This document shows, one piece after another, positions 4,109 to 16,520 of a DNA stretch of 64,000 nt. The notes beneath the pieces were generated by a model. That model was not told the origin of the DNA. It ran no database searches and saw only the letters and a program-made list of their open reading frames with translations. A program made the translations under genes and the position numbers. The stretch lies in the NCBI RefSeq assembly GCF_030013595.1, contig NZ_CP122768.1; one strand, 5' to 3'. Source of the stretch: Escherichia coli (GTDB taxonomy: Bacteria; Pseudomonadota; Gammaproteobacteria; Enterobacterales; Enterobacteriaceae). Position 1 is the first letter of the stretch. Every line of letters begins with the position of its first letter.

Positions 4109-4264
4109 TTACTCCTCAGGTTCGTAAGCTGTGAAGACAGCGACCTCCGTCTGGCCGGTTCGGATTCGTACCTCGCAGAGGTCTTTCCTCGTTACCAGTG
4201 CCGTCACTATGACGGTTAAACAGATGACGATCAGGGCGATTAACATCGCCTTTTGCTGCTTCAT
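4109..4264 (-). CDS. hokD: Hok/Gef-family type I toxin (HokD/RelF-like), 51 aa
   Basis: hand translation gives MKQQKAMLIALIVICLTVIVTALVTRKDLCEVRIRTGQTEVAVFTAYEPEE; below the 60-aa cutoff of the ORF track. Confidence 0.85.
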   Translation of the reverse strand: MKQQKAMLIALIVICLTVIVTALVTRKDLCEVRIRTGQTEVAVFTAYEPEE

Positions 4265-4474
4265 AGCCTGCTTCTCCTTGACCTTTCGGTCCGTAAGAGG
4301 CTAATCTCTATGTGTCGCATAGATATGGCCTCAGATTAATGTTAAGCGTCTTGCAGGACGCGTAATGTTAACTGGGGCTTTTCTCTATCTGCCTTTTGGT
4401 GTTCATGCCTGAGGCAGATAGCCTCAAGCACCCGCAGCAATTCTACTTAACTCTCCTTTTCCCGCAAACCGTTT

Positions 4475-9166: not shown

Positions 9167-9689
9167 ACGAACCCCTGGCAGACATTTGTTTATCTGCAAA
9201 GTAATATTGGTATTGCTGACGATACGCGTGCTTGAAAGCAATAGCTTTTTCTATAAGCTCGTCAGTCTCACGTTCCACAACAGCTGGATCCGCAAAAAGC
9301 AGCCCGGACTCCACCACATCGCCATATTCTTTGTTTAACCCGGCGATCATGTACGTAATGCTTTTTCCGTCAGTAATTTCACAATACAACCTGAAATCGC
9401 TGATCCGGATAGCCTCCATAATTGCCGGAATCAGCGCCGTGAATTTTTCCCGCTTATCCCTGGTGTCGATAGCTTTCCAGCGTTCGAATATCTTCACCCG
9501 GTTAACGCCCAGCGCCCGTTGATCAACCGCGCCATCATCAAACGTGACGCGTTGAACATCGATGTTCGGGCGTTCTTTCAGAGCCCAGAAGGCTTCCGTG
9601 ATTAATATCGTCGCCTGCTCCTGTGTCATTCCTGGTCGGCACACCCAGGCATCCAGAGCCTCACAAACCTGTTCAGGGGTGATTTTCAT
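9138..9689 (-). CDS. early-region protein in the cII position (YdaT-like?), 183 aa
   Basis: ORF between the cro-like gene and the O-like gene; weak recalled resemblance to YdaT-family proteins. Confidence 0.4.
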   Translation of the reverse strand: MKITPEQVCEALDAWVCRPGMTQEQATILITEAFWALKERPNIDVQRVTFDDGAVDQRALGVNRVKIFERWKAIDTRDKREKFTALIPAIMEAIRISDFRLYCEITDGKSITYMIAGLNKEYGDVVESGLLFADPAVVERETDELIEKAIAFKHAYRQQYQYYFADKQMSARGSYEYRCTTMG

Positions 9690-9900
9690 TGTTCAACCGC
9701 CCCGCCCGCTTTGCCTTACGATATTCGTCATAAACTTTGGGGTCGTACTGAAGTTCCCCGCCGGATGCCTCTTGCAGGCGCATCGCGCGACCTTCAGGAA
9801 CCAGTTCCCCCCATGCAGCAATGCTTGCCAGCCTAACTCCTGCGGCATTGGCAAGCTTTGTTTTGCTGCCAAAAAACGCTATAGCATCAATTTTCAACAT
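9673..9900 (-). CDS. dicC: DicC-like (Cro-type) repressor
   Basis: 75-aa protein close to DicC as recalled (…FGSKTKLA…AAG…LVPEGRAMRLQEASGGELQYDPKVYDEY…); divergent from dicA. Confidence 0.75.
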   Translation of the reverse strand: MLKIDAIAFFGSKTKLANAAGVRLASIAAWGELVPEGRAMRLQEASGGELQYDPKVYDEYRKAKRAGRLNNENHP

Positions 9901-9976: not shown

Positions 9977-10384
9977 ATGAAAAACGAAACCTTCGGTGCT
10001 CGCCTCTTACATAGGCGTAAAAAATTAAAACTGTCTCAGGCCGCATTAGGTAAGCTGGTCAAAGTGGCTCACGTAACAATTTCTCAATGGGAAAGAGATG
10101 AAACACAGCCGGCGGGGAAAAGATTATTCGCACTGAGCCAAGCGCTTCAGTGCTCACCGACTTGGCTTCTTTTTGGGGATGAAGATAAACAACCAGGCGA
10201 ACCGATCCCGGATAATCAGCCAGCCATTCTGACAGAAGATCAAAAAGAGTTACTTCAACTGTTCGACGCACTGCCTGAGTCAGAGCAAAAGGCCCTGTTG
10301 TCAGAGATGCGTGCTCGAGTTGAAAATTTCAACAAACTTTTTGAAGAACTACTCAAAGCTCGCAAAAGAAGCGCAAACAAATAA
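9977..10384 (+). CDS. dicA: DicA-like HTH (XRE family) repressor
   Basis: 135-aa protein close to DicA as recalled (…SQWER…FALS…LQCSPTW…FGDEDKQP…NFNKLFEELLKAR…). Confidence 0.8.
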   Translation: MKNETFGARLLHRRKKLKLSQAALGKLVKVAHVTISQWERDETQPAGKRLFALSQALQCSPTWLLFGDEDKQPGEPIPDNQPAILTEDQKELLQLFDALPESEQKALLSEMRARVENFNKLFEELLKARKRSANK

Positions 10385-10586
10385 TCCCCTTTTTTCTCCA
10401 CACCCTGTAATAAAAAGCACAAACTTTCAAACACTTGTGTTTTTTACATCAAAAAACTTAGGTTTTTCTACATAAAAATCTTGACCACCAGCCTTAGGTT
10501 ATTCTAAATTTCATTCATCAAGACACCGCACGGTGTTCTCAGCAAACAGTTCCGCCACCCCGGCGTTAAGGGGAAATGAGGTCAAC

Positions 10587-10739
10587 ATGGATACTATCGA
10601 TCTTGGCAACAACGAATCTCTGGTATACGGCGTGTTTCCCAACCAGGACGGCACATTCACCGCGATGACGTATACCAAAAGCAAAACGTTTAAAACCGAA
10701 ACTGGCGCTCGTCGCTGGTTAGCCAGAAACACTGACTGA
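10587..10739 (+). CDS. ydfA: YdfA-like protein (DUF1391)
   Basis: MDTIDLGNNESLVYGVFPNQDGTFTAMTYTKSKTFKTE… matches YdfA of Qin as recalled; first gene of the dicB operon. Confidence 0.7.
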   Translation: MDTIDLGNNESLVYGVFPNQDGTFTAMTYTKSKTFKTETGARRWLARNTD

Positions 10740-10750
10740 TGAGGCTGACG

Positions 10751-11389
10751 ATGGAATTTAAAGATTTACCAATATCAATACAGGAAATGGCCGCTGATGT
10801 GATTCGCTCGCAACTGGCGCGGAACCCAATGATATTAGTAGATAAAGTGTTCATCAGAAATTTATCAAATCATGTCCGCAATTCTTTTACCGGACTGTAT
10901 TCATATTCGTTCACAAACAATCATTGTGTAGAAAATAAAGCAAAGCCCATTGCAGAAACGATAACGCAAAACATCAATACGAAACAAACCGAAGAAGAAA
11001 TTGACCAGTTTACCCGTGATGCTGGCTTAAAATGCAGGAAAGAAAAATCGCCATATGCGGGAAATATGTTTGTTTATGACAACCTTATCCGAATTCGTGG
11101 CGAAATTCCGACTGAATACCTGGCAAGAATTCACCAGGCATTACTTAAAAATCTGGAAACGGAAGTATTTGATGGCAATACCAACGGCTCCTTCGTGGTG
11201 TCAACTCTCGCAAAAGAGTGGGATACAGATAATCGCTGGAATGTTGCTACATGGTTATTCAGCAACAAAGCTGCTGCCCTGGAAGCTGCGGCCTGTATTT
11301 GCGACCTGCTAAGGACAGACCGCAAATACAACCTGGATGTGTATAGCTATATTTATGCTGAACACTATCCGCTATGGATTAACTGGTAA
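10751..11389 (+). CDS. hypothetical protein, about 212 aa, no recognisable domain
   Basis: AT-rich ORF; GAGG Shine-Dalgarno before the second ATG; occupies the ydfB/ydfC position. Confidence 0.55.
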   Translation: MEFKDLPISIQEMAADVIRSQLARNPMILVDKVFIRNLSNHVRNSFTGLYSYSFTNNHCVENKAKPIAETITQNINTKQTEEEIDQFTRDAGLKCRKEKSPYAGNMFVYDNLIRIRGEIPTEYLARIHQALLKNLETEVFDGNTNGSFVVSTLAKEWDTDNRWNVATWLFSNKAAALEAAACICDLLRTDRKYNLDVYSYIYAEHYPLWINW

Positions 11390-11599
11390 TTACAAAGCTG
11401 TACCAGCAGGGCCACGGCGACCAGCGCCACGATTGTAATCAATGATGCCATTATAAAGCGCATTATTTAATTTATCGTCGAATGCCGATTCTGTGAGCCC
11501 TAGATCTGAATGAGTTTTTAATAACCCTGATTGCCTGAGTTGATTAACCAGGCATTCAATCTGTTTTTCAATAAGCGGATGTATTGGCTTGTTTGGCAT
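11390..11599 (-). CDS. hypothetical small protein, 69 aa (MPNKPIHPLIEKQIECLVNQL…)
   Basis: GGAGG Shine-Dalgarno 4 nt before the ATG; stop codon abuts the stop of the convergent 212-aa gene. Confidence 0.5.
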   Translation of the reverse strand: MPNKPIHPLIEKQIECLVNQLRQSGLLKTHSDLGLTESAFDDKLNNALYNGIIDYNRGAGRRGPAGTAL

Positions 11600-11924
11600 T
11601 TTATCCTCCATTGAAGTTACTGGTTGAGAATGGAGACCACACGTGACAGCGTGTTGTCGTGCACCGGACACGGATAAGAATCCGGCACTGACAGTTTACT
11701 GAAAGGATATATCCCTGAAAAGTCAGGGCATAACGCGAAAGCGCACGGCGGAGGTGTCTTTTCCTTAGAAGGCTTGTCGTTAGATTTCTTCGATTGTGCG
11801 CTTCCGGTTGTAGCACTCCGCGAAATGGCGCGGCGGTAAGTATGGCGGGGTTATTCCTTCCCCGTTGAGGACACCGGGTTGTCAGGTTGACCATACGCTT
11901 AAGTGACAACCCCGCTGCAACAAC

Positions 11925-11988
11925 CCATGTTGATTACCTTTTGGTGGGTATCCGTTTTTTGTTTTCCCTTGTGATACCCGCCCTTTTT
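11925..11988 (+). ncRNA. dicF: DicF-like small RNA (divergent)
   Basis: upstream of dicB; TTTGGTGGGTATC…GATACCCGCCC hairpin followed by TTTTT resembles the recalled DicF 3' end; boundaries approximate. Confidence 0.4.
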
Positions 11989-12173
11989 AAAGTGAATTTT
12001 GTGATGCGGTGAATGCGGCTCAGCGCACGCGGAACAGTTAAAAAAGTGATCGGTACTCTGTATTTGTTTTATGGAGTTGGTTTCCCTGTATTCCGGCGTT
12101 AATTGTTAACTGGTTAACGTCACCTGGAGGCACCAGGCACCGCATCACAAAATTCATTGTTGAGGACGCGATA

Positions 12174-12362
12174 ATGGAAACGTTATTACCAAACGTCAAT
12201 ACGTCTGAAGGTTGTTTTGAAATTGGTGTCAGAATCAGTAACCCTGTATTTACTGAAGATGCCATTAATAAGAGAAAACACGAACGGGAGCTATTAAATC
12301 AAATATGCATTGTTTCAATGCTGGCCCGTTTACGCCTGATGCAAAAAGGACGCTGCCAATGA
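12174..12362 (+). CDS. dicB: cell-division inhibitor DicB
   Basis: 62-aa protein METLLPNVNTSEGCFEIGV…ICIVSMLARLRLM… close to K-12 DicB as recalled. Confidence 0.85.
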   Translation: METLLPNVNTSEGCFEIGVRISNPVFTEDAINKRKHERELLNQICIVSMLARLRLMQKGRCQ

Positions 12363-12562
12363 ATACAGCATTTGCACTCGTTCTGACAGTTTTTCTTAAT
12401 ACAGGCGAACCAGTCGATCTTGTTATTGGTATACATGACTCAATGAAAGAATGCATGGCTGCCGCAGCGGAACAGAAAATTCCCGGCAACTGTTATCCGG
12501 TTGATAAAGTTATTCGCATGGACAATAACGAAATCCCGGCAGGACTTAAAACAGCACCGTAA
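12359..12562 (+). CDS. ydfD: YdfD-like small protein
   Basis: MNTAFALVLTVFL…AAAEQKIPGNCYPVDKVI… resembles YdfD; ATG overlaps the dicB stop. Confidence 0.6.
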   Translation: MNTAFALVLTVFLNTGEPVDLVIGIHDSMKECMAAAAEQKIPGNCYPVDKVIRMDNNEIPAGLKTAP

Positions 12563-12639: not shown

Positions 12640-15102
12640 ATGAGCGCTGATAAAGAAGAAATTGCACTATATTACGAAGCCAAAAATGACAAAGTCAGAA
12701 AACGCCTTGGGATTAAAGGCGGTTTTTACTGGCGCACAGCAAAAAAATTATCGATTGCAATATCACGCGGTGTTGTCGCAATGGACGATGCCGGATTTGA
12801 CGAAGAGGATTTTAAAAAACCTGTTCGCGTCCATTTACCCGTTGTGAATGACCTTCCTCCGGAAGGCGTGTTTGATACCGAATTCTGCAACCGATACGAA
12901 AAAGGCGGGGAAGATGGTATCACAATGGTACTTATCGCGCCCTCTGTTCAGGACAAACCAGCCAGCACTGACAATACCAACGTCAACGGTGAAGACATGA
13001 CTGAGATTGAGGAGAATATGCTCCTGCCAGTTTCAGGTCAGATTCTGCCTGTTCGATGGCTGGCGCAACACAACAGCGAAAAACCGATCACGCACGTTTC
13101 GCGGGACGAACTGCGCGCATTACATAACGCACAGGATGAAAAACTTCCCGCCGTTACCGCGCTGGCCATCTCAAATAAAGCAGCGCAACTCGAACCACTG
13201 GAAATTCGCGATCTCCACAAACTGGTACGCGACACTGACAAAGTTTTCCCTAATCCTGGTAATTCAGACCTGGGACTGATGACCGCTTTTTTCGAAGCAT
13301 ACCTGGGCGCTAACTACACCGATCGCGGTCTGCTTACAAAAGAGTGGATGAAGGGAAATCGTGTTTCACGTATCACCCGCACGGCTTCCGGCGCTAATGC
13401 TGGCGGCGGGAACAAAACCGATCGCAATCCGAATTTAGTACACACCTTCGATACGCTGGATGTGGAGATTGCAGCAGCCACACTTCCGATGGATTTTAAT
13501 ATTTATGAAATTCCGGGCAGCGTTTATCGTCGCGCAAAAGAAGTCGTCCGGAAGAAAGAAAGTCCGTTCAAAGAATGGTCCGCAGCACTTCGCGCAATCC
13601 CGGGTATCCTGGATTATTCCCGTGCCGCTATTTTTGCACTTATCCGGAGCGCCCACCCTGAACTTTACCTCTACAGGGTACGCCTTCAGGTGTATATCAA
13701 CGCCCACTTAACGGAGACTGATCACGAGAATCCTACCGAGGAAACTCTCGCTGCTGCACGACATACACCGGAAAAAGATATCCTGGAAGAAGTTAACCGC
13801 GAACTGGCTGCTGCTAAACACGAAACAGAAGAAGAAAAAAATAATGAGGAAAAATCACAACCGTCTGACGCAATGGCAGATGAACAGGCAACGACTGAAA
13901 CAATGGAGCCGGATACAACTGAACATCGCCAGGACACGCAATCGCTGGATACTCAGGCGCAGATAGATCCGGTTAATCAGGTAAAAGTTACCGCTGACGA
14001 AGTAAACAAAATTATGCAGGCAGCCAATATCAACCAGCCTGACGCCAATCAGTTGCTTGCTGTATCACGTGGTGAATTTGTTGCAGGGATTAGCGACCCG
14101 AATGATCCGAAATGGGTGAAGGGGATTGAAACCCGCGATTCAGTGAATCAGAACCAGCAAGAAATGGAACAGAACGACCAGAAAGCGGAAAAAAACAGCC
14201 CAAATGCGTTACAAAACGAGCCAGAAACGAAACAACCTGAGCCAGTAGCGCAACAGGAATCGGAAAAAGTCTGCACCGCCTGCGGTCAGAGCGGTGGCGG
14301 CAGCTGCCCTGATTGTGGCGCGGTGATGGGCGACGCAACATACCAGGAAACATTCGATGAAGAGAATCAGGTTGAAGTTCAGGAAAATGATCCGGAGGAA
14401 ATGGAAGGCGCTGAACATCCACACAAGGAGAATGCTGGCAGCGCTCAGGACCACGCCAGCGATAATGAAACTGGCGAGACGGCAGATCCCTTAATTGCGG
14501 TGAACGGTCATCACGTTATCACATCCACCAGCAGAGTGTGGTACCACCTGATGATCGACCTTGAAACAATGGGAACCAACACCAATGCGCCCATCGTGGT
14601 TATTGGTGCGGTTTTCTTCGACCCACAAACAGGGGAAATCGGGCCAGTATTTTATATCGTTATCAGTCTGACTGACGCAATGAATACAGGGGCTGTTCCT
14701 GACGGTGGAACCATCGAATGGTGGCTGAAGCAGTCCAGTGAAGCCAGAGCTGCCATTTTAACAGACCAGGTAAAACTGAAGGATGCCCTTTCGCGGTTTC
14801 GGGAGTTCATCAACGAATACTCAGATGAAAAATTCGTTCAGGTATGGGGTAATGGTGCAACTTTCGATAACGCAATTTTGCGCACCTCATACGAACGTCT
14901 GGACATCCCCTGCCCGTGGCGCTACTACAACGATCGCGATGTACGCACAATCGTTGAGCTGGGAAAAACCATCGGTTTTGATGCCAGAACAGCTATCCCG
15001 TTCGAAGGTGTACCCCACAATGCACTGGATGATGCCCGTCACCAGGCGAAATACGTTTCAGTAATCTGGCAAAAACTGATCCCGAGTCAGGCTGATTTTT
15101 AA
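12640..15102 (+). CDS. prophage exonuclease (YdfE/exodeoxyribonuclease VIII-like), 820 aa, with C-terminal DnaQ-like DEDDh 3'-5' exonuclease domain
   Basis: C-terminus has Exo I (MIDLETMG), Exo II (WGNGATFD) and Exo III (HNALDDARH) motifs; acidic low-complexity linker and C-x2-C-x9-C-x2-C motif; sits upstream of xis-int. Confidence 0.7.
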   Translation: MSADKEEIALYYEAKNDKVRKRLGIKGGFYWRTAKKLSIAISRGVVAMDDAGFDEEDFKKPVRVHLPVVNDLPPEGVFDTEFCNRYEKGGEDGITMVLIAPSVQDKPASTDNTNVNGEDMTEIEENMLLPVSGQILPVRWLAQHNSEKPITHVSRDELRALHNAQDEKLPAVTALAISNKAAQLEPLEIRDLHKLVRDTDKVFPNPGNSDLGLMTAFFEAYLGANYTDRGLLTKEWMKGNRVSRITRTASGANAGGGNKTDRNPNLVHTFDTLDVEIAAATLPMDFNIYEIPGSVYRRAKEVVRKKESPFKEWSAALRAIPGILDYSRAAIFALIRSAHPELYLYRVRLQVYINAHLTETDHENPTEETLAAARHTPEKDILEEVNRELAAAKHETEEEKNNEEKSQPSDAMADEQATTETMEPDTTEHRQDTQSLDTQAQIDPVNQVKVTADEVNKIMQAANINQPDANQLLAVSRGEFVAGISDPNDPKWVKGIETRDSVNQNQQEMEQNDQKAEKNSPNALQNEPETKQPEPVAQQESEKVCTACGQSGGGSCPDCGAVMGDATYQETFDEENQVEVQENDPEEMEGAEHPHKENAGSAQDHASDNETGETADPLIAVNGHHVITSTSRVWYHLMIDLETMGTNTNAPIVVIGAVFFDPQTGEIGPVFYIVISLTDAMNTGAVPDGGTIEWWLKQSSEARAAILTDQVKLKDALSRFREFINEYSDEKFVQVWGNGATFDNAILRTSYERLDIPCPWRYYNDRDVRTIVELGKTIGFDARTAIPFEGVPHNALDDARHQAKYVSVIWQKLIPSQADF

Positions 15103-15154: not shown

Positions 15155-15433
15155 GTGATAACCATGAGCGAACAGTACCTGATAACGCTCGACGAGTGGA
15201 AACCAAAACGGTTCAGTCTCCCAATAACAAACACCACCCTGGTGAAATACGGAAAACTAGGATACATCGTTCCAAGACCACAAAAAATTCGTGGGCGTTG
15301 GCTGATAGATCGCCGGGCAGTATTTGTTGGACCTGGTGAAACAGGAATTGCGCCGGAAATTCATACTGGCGATGATGATGCACTGAAGGAGATTTTAACT
15401 CATGTCACCGAGGCCACGAAAAAACAGCACTGA
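15155..15433 (+). CDS. xis: excisionase (Xis)
   Basis: lambda-Xis-like N-terminus (…LITLDEW…RPQKIRGRWL…), directly upstream of and overlapping int. Confidence 0.7.
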   Translation: MITMSEQYLITLDEWKPKRFSLPITNTTLVKYGKLGYIVPRPQKIRGRWLIDRRAVFVGPGETGIAPEIHTGDDDALKEILTHVTEATKKQH

Positions 15434-16520
15434 CGTAGCCGGTCTTTACGAAAAGTTTGATCGCAGAACTGGCAGGGTTTACTACCAGTATAAAAACCCT
15501 GTGACTGGAAAATTTCACGGACTCGGAACAGACAAAGGTAAGGCAGAAAAAATCGCTTCCACAGCCAATCAGCGAATAGCTGCAGCAGAGGCTGAATATT
15601 TCATGCGCAAAATTGATGAAAGTCCGTCAGCAACAAAACGTCGGGGTATCAGATTAAAGGCATGGGTTGATCGATATCTGAAAATACAGGACGCGCGACT
15701 GAAAAATGGAGATATTGCAGCTACAACTCACAAAGAAAAAGCCCGAATGGCTGCATACCTGGTTTCCCGTCTGGGAAACCACCCATTGAAAGAACTGGAA
15801 GTAAGAGACTTTGCATTAATACTGGATGAGTGGCTGGATAAAGACATGGTCAGCACAGCGAGAGTAAATCGCGGATTATGGGTTGATATTTATAAAGAAG
15901 CACAGCATGCAGGGGAAGTTCCTCCTGGATGGAATCCTCCGGAGGCTACCCGTAAACCGATCCCTAAAGTAACCAGAGCCAGGCTCACCATGGAAGACTG
16001 GCAAAAAATTTACAATGCAACGCCTGAAAAACACTTTATCCGTAACGCAATGCTTCTTGCGATTGTTACTGGTCAGCGCCGTGATGACATTTGCCACATG
16101 CGTTTTTCAGATGTGTGGAACGAACACTTGCATATCACCCAGGGAAAAACCGGAATGCGTCTGGCGTTACCGCTTACACTACGCTGTGATGCCATTGGGA
16201 TAACGTTAAAAGAAGTTATTGATGGGTGCCGAGACAGAATATTAAGTCCATATCTAATCCATAGTCGGCACCAGAAACAACCGAAGCCGATGAGTAAAGA
16301 CAACCTGAGCGACTACTTTGCCAAAGCACGGGATCTGGCTGGGATAATTCCACCAGCAGGAAAAACTCCGCCAACATTTCATGAACAACGCTCTCTATCA
16401 GAACGGCTGTACCGTGCACAGGGTATCGATACAAAAACATTACTAGGACATAAAGTCCAGGCAACCACCGATCGCTATAACGATACTCGAGGTCAGGAAT
16501 GGGTTAAGTTGGTTATTTGA
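15402..16520 (+). CDS. int: tyrosine-type site-specific integrase
   Basis: 372-aa ORF with an integrase-typical C-terminal region (…HEQRSL…LLGH…TDRYND…), next to the chromosome junction. Confidence 0.85.
   Translation: MSPRPRKNSTDVAGLYEKFDRRTGRVYYQYKNPVTGKFHGLGTDKGKAEKIASTANQRIAAAEAEYFMRKIDESPSATKRRGIRLKAWVDRYLKIQDARLKNGDIAATTHKEKARMAAYLVSRLGNHPLKELEVRDFALILDEWLDKDMVSTARVNRGLWVDIYKEAQHAGEVPPGWNPPEATRKPIPKVTRARLTMEDWQKIYNATPEKHFIRNAMLLAIVTGQRRDDICHMRFSDVWNEHLHITQGKTGMRLALPLTLRCDAIGITLKEVIDGCRDRILSPYLIHSRHQKQPKPMSKDNLSDYFAKARDLAGIIPPAGKTPPTFHEQRSLSERLYRAQGIDTKTLLGHKVQATTDRYNDTRGQEWVKLVI

Follow-up and report, generated by a model that had tools for sequence, protein, structure and literature searches.

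A probable minor allele of dicF, with a DicF-type terminator hairpin and changed seeds, in a Qin-like prophage of Escherichia coli

We propose that positions 11922-11988 of the window (the whole 64,000-nucleotide stretch of DNA that we analyzed) hold a minor natural allele of dicF: a terminator or attenuator that releases a short, DicF-homologous RNA with altered or lost targets. We lean towards this explanation, though only modestly. Comparison of natural alleles shows that the hairpin and the U-run that follows it are homologous to the DicF terminator and are structurally conserved. In E. coli K-12, DicF is a 53-nt, Hfq-dependent RNA that is processed from the ydfABC-dicF-dicB-ydfD transcript, and it represses ftsZ, pykA, xylR, and manX.

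The arrangement that we propose, within a repressor-controlled early-left operon, is a conserved leader, then the short cassette, then a conserved long-range duplex, and then dicB. The hairpin would be an intrinsic terminator/attenuator that limits read-through into dicB. Termination would free a short RNA of about 45-67 nt, with a U-rich stretch, the hairpin, and a U-tail, and this RNA would be the same Hfq-type 3' module as in DicF.

The dicF slot and its hairpin

Judging by the neighboring genes, the slot belongs to the early-left operon, under repressor control, of a Qin-like lambdoid prophage that is inserted in an E. coli-type chromosome. NCBIfam models identify DicC (9673-9900, - strand), DicA (9977-10384, + strand), and an exonuclease VIII-like (recE-like) gene (12640-15102). 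As with DicF, the location is in the dicA/dicC-controlled early operon and immediately 5' of dicB, according to both these NCBIfam neighbors and the alignment with K-12 and phage Tritos. The features of the slot are:

11922-11988, + strand: dicF-slot cassette (type B1a, "short form") of the Qin-like lambdoid prophage, upstream of dicB
11922..11942, + strand: short ("S") 5' module, AACCCATGTTGATTACCTTTT, predicted to be single-stranded, which takes the place of the K-12 module GCCCTCTGTTATCAATTTTCTGGTGACGTTT
11943..11982, + strand: terminator-type hairpin (from fold prediction, the folds of the alleles, and stem covariation across allele types)
11943-11952 and 11973-11982, + strand: the hairpin arms, GGTGGGTATC pairing with GATACCCGCC
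11953-11972, + strand: hairpin loop CGTTTTTTGTTTTCCCTTGT, 20 nt and U-rich
11983..11988, + strand: C and a run of five T, the presumed termination point, the same as the 3' tail of K-12 DicF
12174..12362, + strand: dicB, a cell division inhibitor gene and the next gene of the operon (NCBIfam NF049927, 128.8 bits versus a cut-off of 100)

Positions 11925-11988 read CCATGTTGATTACCTTTTGGTGGGTATCCGTTTTTTGTTTTCCCTTGTGATACCCGCCCTTTTT. A sequence-only reading of this DNA had noticed a terminator-like hairpin and T-run in the position of dicF, upstream of dicB, and the sequence, its neighbors, and the alignment with K-12 and Tritos all agree with this. The resemblance to the 3' end of DicF that it noted is also borne out, as the stem base and the U-tail match DicF.

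As RNA, the hairpin has a predicted minimum free energy of -16.6 kcal/mol (z = -4.04), and none of 200 dinucleotide shuffles fold equally well. The T-run is 3' of the hairpin on the + strand only. By computation (the folding energy, the z score, the CUUUUU tail, and the covarying stem), the 3' end is predicted to be a terminator hairpin with a U-run, as in DicF. A generic terminator scan did not list the 11943-11982 hairpin because that scan allows loops of 3-8 nt only, and this loop is 20 nt. A run of five U and a loop of 15-20 nt are atypical for an efficient intrinsic terminator, and this counts against our preferred explanation. The window copy also has GGTGGG instead of the GGCGGG of the common allele. 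This C-to-T change creates a G.U pair that makes the hairpin less stable by about 1.9 kcal/mol (-16.6 in the window versus -18.5 kcal/mol for the common allele), and the exact window copy, with GGTGGG, is found in only 2 of the 91 genomes that carry B1a.

Could this be a chance hairpin, a protein-coding sequence, or a minus-strand element, with no relation to dicF? Two open reading frames do overlap the interval (11887-12012 on the + strand, 41 amino acids, and 11601-11909 on the - strand, 102 amino acids, both starting with TTG). However, the lengths of the cassettes (55, 62, 64, 67, 72, and 74 nt) differ by non-multiples of three, so there is no conserved frame, and the region is homologous to a non-coding interval in K-12. 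The shuffles described above argue against a chance hairpin and the position of the T-run argues against a minus-strand element. We consider these explanations very improbable.

At 10533-11599, the genes differ from those at the same place in K-12 (ydfA, ydfB, and ydfC). The open reading frames here, which have no NCBIfam matches, are:

10533-10739: 68 amino acids, replaces the ydfA/ydfB/ydfC region of K-12
10739-11389: 216 amino acids, replaces the ydfA/ydfB/ydfC region of K-12
11390-11599, - strand: 69 amino acids; its counterpart in C012, a near-identical strain, carries the annotation of a hypothetical protein

Because the minus-strand ORF at 11390-11599 separates the leader from the early genes upstream, we have to assume that transcription enters the slot. 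With a minus-strand gene inside the early-left operon, it is not obvious how transcription would reach the dicF slot and dicB in this prophage. We looked for a sigma-70-like promoter on the + strand of 11300-12400 and found none.

Elsewhere in the prophage part of the window, there is a cluster of four phage-type tRNA genes (457-763, - strand) and a full-length sok antitoxin RNA (4262-4433, - strand, 108.3 bits), which implies a hok/sok module. The 372-amino-acid ORF that follows the recE-like gene (15402-16520) has no NCBIfam match. The SraB sRNA (53564-53732, - strand, 203.3 bits) and the RNase E 5' UTR element (55593-55929, + strand, 260.1 bits) are host chromosome markers near rne.

Relation to K-12 DicF and to other alleles of the slot

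Of 5,426 complete E. coli genomes, 4,718 have homologs of the 502-nt interval at 11672-12173, and the identity is mostly 80-90%. Positions 11677-12173 align end to end with the ydfC-dicB intergenic region of K-12 Qin and also align with phage Tritos, whose slot carries a DicF annotation. The part upstream of the slot (11672-11925), which had been read as non-coding, is indeed so, and it is homologous to the K-12 leader. About 130 nt on the 5' side of the slot and about 55 nt on the 3' side are nearly identical to K-12, and 11922-11982 is a different cassette. Alignment to K-12 dicF, a check that the sequence-only reading had proposed, thus gives a homologous slot with a sharply bounded divergent cassette at 59% gapped identity. 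(The slot sequences that we compared are AACCCATGTTGATTACCTTTTGGTGGGTATCCGTTTTTTGTTTTCCCTTGTGATACCCGCCCTTTTT from the window and GCCCTCTGTTATCAATTTTCTGGTGACGTTTGGCGGTATCAGTTTTACTCCGTGACTGCTCTGCCGCCCTTTTT from K-12.)

K-12 DicF and the window allele have the same operon slot, with the same conserved leader on the 5' side and the same conserved pre-dicB duplex on the 3' side. The parts that are common to both RNAs are UUUGG.GG.UAUC.GUUU, GUGA, and CCGCCCUUUUU. In particular, the stem base and tail of DicF are kept (GGYGG...CCGCCCUUUUU; the GGCGG/CCGCC stem base and the CUUUUU tail), and the 5' side of the hairpin and the start of the loop can be aligned (UAUC.GUUUU...GUGA). The stem and loop also differ: the stem of this allele is a perfect helix of 10-12 bp, while the K-12 stem is interrupted, and the loop is 15-20 nt and U-rich, while the K-12 loop is UUUUACUCCGUG.

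The 5' part of the allele differs from K-12 DicF, as had been noted; in effect it is shortened by about 11 nt. Alignments show that these nucleotides of the K-12 5' arm (CUGGUGACGUU) are missing. The 5' single-stranded arm of DicF, UUUCUGGUGACGUUU, is not present, and ...GAUUACCUUUU is in its place. The predicted folds also give no counterpart in the window allele to the K-12 precursor hairpin (CUGUUAUCA/UGGUGACG), whose loop holds the 5' end of DicF. Instead of a precursor hairpin that presents the RNase E site, the prediction is a 21-nt unpaired linker (11922-11942). The divergence goes beyond the 5' region: the loop, which is the region of K-12 DicF that pairs with ftsZ, is replaced as well.

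A check against the Rfam model for DicF (RF00039), which the sequence-only reading had also proposed, gave no match in the window at the gathering score (48 bits) and no match at E ≤ 10 in 11600-12200 with permissive filters. Two other loci with the same hairpin type (B1 loci L050 and L067) had no match to the model at E ≤ 1. As positive controls, K-12 DicF scores 76.7 bits and Tritos scores 72.5 bits. We judged a covariance model of our own, built from non-B1 alleles, to be uninformative: with B2 included, a match is trivial (the 5' module is shared), and without B2, the result is the same as for Rfam.

We collected natural alleles from IMG/VR in two scans, the first for the conserved flanks and the second for the short 5' module, and we extracted the cassettes. 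The allele types are:

A1: K-12 type and the majority; Rfam 76.7 bits; 3,974 of 5,426 complete E. coli genomes
A2: K-12 5' arm with hairpin GGCGGCATCTG...CTGATGTCCGCC; 43.5 bits; about 305 records at 95% identity or above among the 5,426 complete E. coli genomes
B2: short 5' module with a hairpin whose stem is A2-like, GGCGGCATCAG...CTGATGTCCGCC; 34.1 bits; 84-92 complete E. coli genomes
B1: short 5' module with hairpin GGCGGGTATC...GATACCCGCC; no Rfam match; includes the window copy
B1a (the window type): at least 94% identity; 91 of 5,426 complete E. coli genomes (about 1.7%), always chromosomal
C: a short form, in E. albertii

A2 is found in, for example, O157:H7 and E. albertii. Carriers of B1a include O55:H7 (such as RM12579), O121 (with O121:H19 strains), porcine ETEC, and strain C012, and the B1a cassette is also in many prophage contigs from IMG/VR; it is neither a one-off nor an error. 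Gapped identity to K-12 DicF is 59% for the window allele, 63% for the B1 sub-variant B1f, 69% for B2, and 83% for A2, and the scores of A2 (43.5 bits) and B2 (34.1 bits) with the Rfam model are intermediate. In the gapped alignment of B1f, GGCGG(G)UAUC.GUUUU...CCGUGA is common to K-12.

Although the Rfam model fails to recognize B1, A1 and A2, A2 and B2, and B2 and B1 each have a module in common, so B1 is homologous to dicF. Together with the conserved flanks, this chain of alleles makes common descent with K-12 dicF well supported. The combinations of 5' module and hairpin type are long+H1, long+H2, short+H2, and short+H3, which indicates that modules are exchanged. The 5' module of B2 is identical to that of the window allele, and the short 5' module was invariant in all of the B1 and B2 alleles that we retrieved with a scan that was anchored on 19 nt of this module.

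The stem base, tail, and flanks are common to all of the natural alleles, while the upper stem and loop differ by type. The first five stem pairs are invariant across allele types, and the upper stem pairs are compensatory between types (GUAUC/GAUAC, AUAUC/GAUAU, ACAUC/GAUGU, and CAUC/GAUG). Within the B1 family, the stem is constant and the loop is the most variable part, with at least eight variants that differ mostly by indels in the U-run, around a GUUUU...UUUUCCC core.

This variation is relevant to another explanation, that dicF has decayed in these prophages. The slot would then hold only an intra-operon terminator or attenuator, in which the 5' seed was deleted and the loop drifted, and which leaves a fragment with no function in trans. 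The hairpin would persist because it sets the level of read-through into toxic dicB. The 5' arm and the precursor hairpin are gone, as this explanation would have it, and a hypervariable loop on a constant stem is what we would expect of an unconstrained terminator loop; on comparison of the B1 sub-alleles, this argues for relaxed constraint. Also, strain C012, which is the nearest relative, has homologs of the 502-nt intergenic region at two places, and a second dicF-type locus would relax selection on this copy. On the other hand, a U-rich loop of 15-20 nt with a UUUUCCC core is kept in nearly all of the B1 variants, and a small loop would serve a pure terminator at least equally well. Together, the S module, hairpin, and U-tail retain the layout of an Hfq-binding 3' module. 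Finally, complete genomes of Stx phages carry short alleles upstream of kil, so these alleles are not confined to decaying prophages. The lasting large loop and the alleles in Stx phages argue against simple decay, as far as sequence comparison can tell. Overall, decay is a real possibility but we rather doubt it.

The short alleles in Stx phages are from Shigella phage 75/02 Stx (L192, at about 1380-1450) and phiSTEC1589-Stx1c (L193, at about 1330-1400). Their hairpins are GGCGGACATC...GATGTCCGCC and GGCGGATATCAG...CTGATATCCGCC, and each is followed by the same conserved duplex element as in the window. Because these alleles adjoin kil instead of dicB, the module of hairpin plus duplex travels with either FtsZ-inhibitor gene. 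When we scanned genome contigs across species, using flank anchors that required exact matches, the locus was found only in E. albertii (A2 and C) and in one metagenome-assembled genome (MAG). In E. coli VL7S7 (NZ_CM177009.1, 4802434-4802478), a CDS that is annotated as ydfC covers an exact match of 45 nt to the B2-type hairpin, which points either to a rearrangement of the locus or to a CDS that was called across the sRNA slot.

Conserved RNA on either side of the slot

Two conserved elements flank the cassette:

11677..11921, + strand: conserved non-coding leader (aligns with K-12 Qin and phage Tritos; conservation profile of 137 loci)
11992..12157, + strand: conserved structured spacer from the slot to dicB (fold z = -4.57; conservation across loci)

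A comparison of 137 distinct loci shows that the interval is a conserved scaffold, which is interrupted by three variable islands: 11752-11771, 11922-11981 (the dicF slot), and 12042-12081. The 10-15 nt beside the slot on each side are fixed by our search anchors, but the conservation reaches far past them. The leader, at about 245 nt, is more conserved than the neighboring genes, and 11822-11921 is nearly invariant across the 137 loci. Its variable island is at about 11752-11771, and the aligned sequences of this leader and the K-12 leader differ by indels of 1-2 nt. The 3' domain of the leader is predicted to fold into a multibranch structure that is closed by 11807-11814/11914-11921 and ends exactly at the cassette boundary. 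We sought strong covariation support for the fold of the leader in an alifold consensus and found only 5 pairs with double changes. No Rfam family matches the leader at E ≤ 10. We consider the predicted structure to be plausible, and a role as a processing platform or in antitermination would be a guess.

In the spacer, a predicted long-range duplex of 20 bp (11992-12011/12138-12157) encloses a multibranch that contains the variable island at about 12042-12081. As in K-12, there appears to be a downstream duplex for an alternative 3' end of DicF, as the predicted duplex is conserved with K-12. Its 5' arm spans the position 19 nt past the terminator, and the 72-nt form of DicF is a product of RNase III (PMC5069750). 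The predicted pre-dicB duplex is likely to be the RNase III substrate that yields this long form, and it probably also gives the 5' end of the dicB mRNA.

The duplex is also the outer stem of a sub-threshold match to STnc100. Positions 11995-12151 score 34.5 bits against this Rfam family (RF02076), which is below the gathering score of 47; the local search gave E = 7.7e-06 over model positions 21-154 of 206. The outer stem and several segments can be aligned to the model (GGUGAAU ... UCACCUGGAGGCACCAGGCACC), and every dicF-type locus that we tested has the same sub-threshold score. However, the reported canonical copies of STnc100 have other positions in prophages, in the late region.

A similar evolutionary pattern has been described for the prophage sRNAs PasA and PasA-2, whose 3' terminator is conserved while their 5' parts diverge (Zhu, Shabalina and Storz, bioRxiv 10.64898/2026.05.13.724894). 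There, too, sRNA genes of prophages have spread horizontally, with a 3' end in common and seeds that vary. But the Pas sRNAs belong to the late (Q/lysis) region, and DicF is not mentioned in the preprint (bioRxiv 10.64898/2026.05.13.724894), while the dicF slot is in the dicB/kil early-left operon. We rejected identity of this element with the published Pas sRNAs or with canonical STnc100, as both are in the late region.

The slot might be a swappable seed cassette between two conserved RNA-processing scaffolds. The scaffolds would be the leader multibranch upstream and the RNase III-type duplex downstream, and phages would swap 5' modules and loops with one another, which would yield sRNAs that act on different targets in the host. 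In this scenario, B1a would be functional and retargeted, possibly to codons 2-8 of ftsA. We consider it unlikely that all of this holds.

Predicted targets and implications

The sequence-only reading had placed the pairing of K-12 DicF with ftsZ in its 5' portion, but the published genetics assign the pairing with ftsZ and pykA to the 3' part and the pairing with xylR to the 5' end (PMC5069750). The 5' arm UUUCUGGUGACGUUU is needed for regulation of xylR (PMC5069750). Because both of the validated DicF seeds are changed in the window allele, the short RNA probably lacks K-12-like repression of ftsZ, pykA, and xylR. The suggestion that a changed seed could mean a different set of targets is sound as logic: given the changes in the validated seeds, a different or lost target set is to be expected.

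We scored potential targets by the hybridization energy plus the opening energies of both partners, using start regions from -60 to +30. The panel was 54 annotated start regions from K-12 and 298 further start regions derived from ORFs (about 350 in total), not the whole genome. (Plain RNAduplex with the full-length sRNA and target gave long, unrealistic duplexes and did not separate real from shuffled pairs, so we used this accessibility-corrected scan instead.) For K-12 DicF and pykA, the score was -12.1 kcal/mol, which ranks first of 54, and 2 of the 298 further regions were equally good. For K-12 DicF and ftsZ, it was -8.3 kcal/mol, which ranks 7th of 54, and 35 of 298 were equally good. 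So the scoring is crude: this validated pair is only in the top 12% of the background.

The window allele scored -3.7 kcal/mol with ftsZ (28th of 54, with 154 of 298 background sites equally good), -4.1 with pykA, and -4.4 with manX, none of them better than background. The target predictions that had been suggested for ftsZ and pykA are thus negative by our scoring, and the predicted loop and 3' region do not have the complementarity to the ftsZ ribosome-binding site and to pykA that characterizes DicF. Pairing at background level with these three genes is what decay of dicF would lead to. However, because the scoring finds the validated ftsZ pair only in the top 12%, the lack of a predicted pairing with ftsZ is weak evidence. 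Some other B1 loop variants keep a modest anti-Shine-Dalgarno match to ftsZ (-7.5 to -7.9), and B2 has no pairing with ftsZ at the scoring threshold.

The best match of the window loop (11953-11972) is to ftsA at +4 to +25, which is codons 2-8 (UCAAGGCGACGGACAGAAAACU in K-12, L125:173-194). The predicted pairing has 18 bp and two 1-nt bulges, with a hybridization energy of -18.0 and a total of -12.9 kcal/mol. This raises another alternative: B1a could be a retargeted regulator of division that acts via ftsA, not via the ribosome-binding site of ftsZ. The ftsA site ranks first of the 54 start regions and none of the 298 further regions are as good, and its energy is comparable to that of the validated DicF-pykA pair under the same scoring. 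It is also within the early-coding window, where binding of an sRNA can block initiation. But its score is matched by 7 of 300 dinucleotide shuffles of the ftsA start region, which is rich in purines, and the complementarity is not conserved: the other B1 loop variants lose or shift the ftsA site (-4.9 to -8.8). Furthermore, only about 350 start regions were compared, and ftsA was in the panel just because it adjoins ftsZ. We regard the predicted complementarity as only a lead, and retargeting to ftsA as quite improbable.

Other candidates fared less well. The short 5' module (11922-11942), taken as the seed, gave nothing notable with ftsZ, ftsA, pykA, or manX (ranks 107-199 of 352). For a target inside the prophage or the window, the complement of the 20-mer loop matches only itself at up to 3 mismatches. 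A phage gene start that scored well in other loci is absent from the window.

Returning to our preferred explanation, if the short RNA acts in trans, it would do so via the U-rich/CCC loop on a different set of targets, and on these predictions we give roughly even odds that it acts in trans.

In the literature that we searched, we found no study of natural alleles of dicF, or of the expression, Hfq binding, or phenotype of this allele. A published survey of DicF counted only copies that were over 99% identical to the K-12 sequence (PMC5069750). Whether or not the short alleles are active, genome annotation and counts of DicF copy number in pathogens currently overlook them: B1a, which is without both of the validated seeds, is invisible to annotation that relies on Rfam. 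The value of the finding lies in annotation and in how the seeds of prophage sRNAs diversify, and not in a new kind of system.

As a classic example of an sRNA from a prophage, DicF connects phage genes with the division and metabolism of the host cell and, in EHEC, with virulence. Several distinct allele types, made by combining interchangeable 5' modules and hairpins, occupy the dicF slot. If they are active, then the targets of "DicF" would vary from strain to strain. If not, then the slot would be an example of a toxic prophage sRNA that was disarmed while its terminator was kept.
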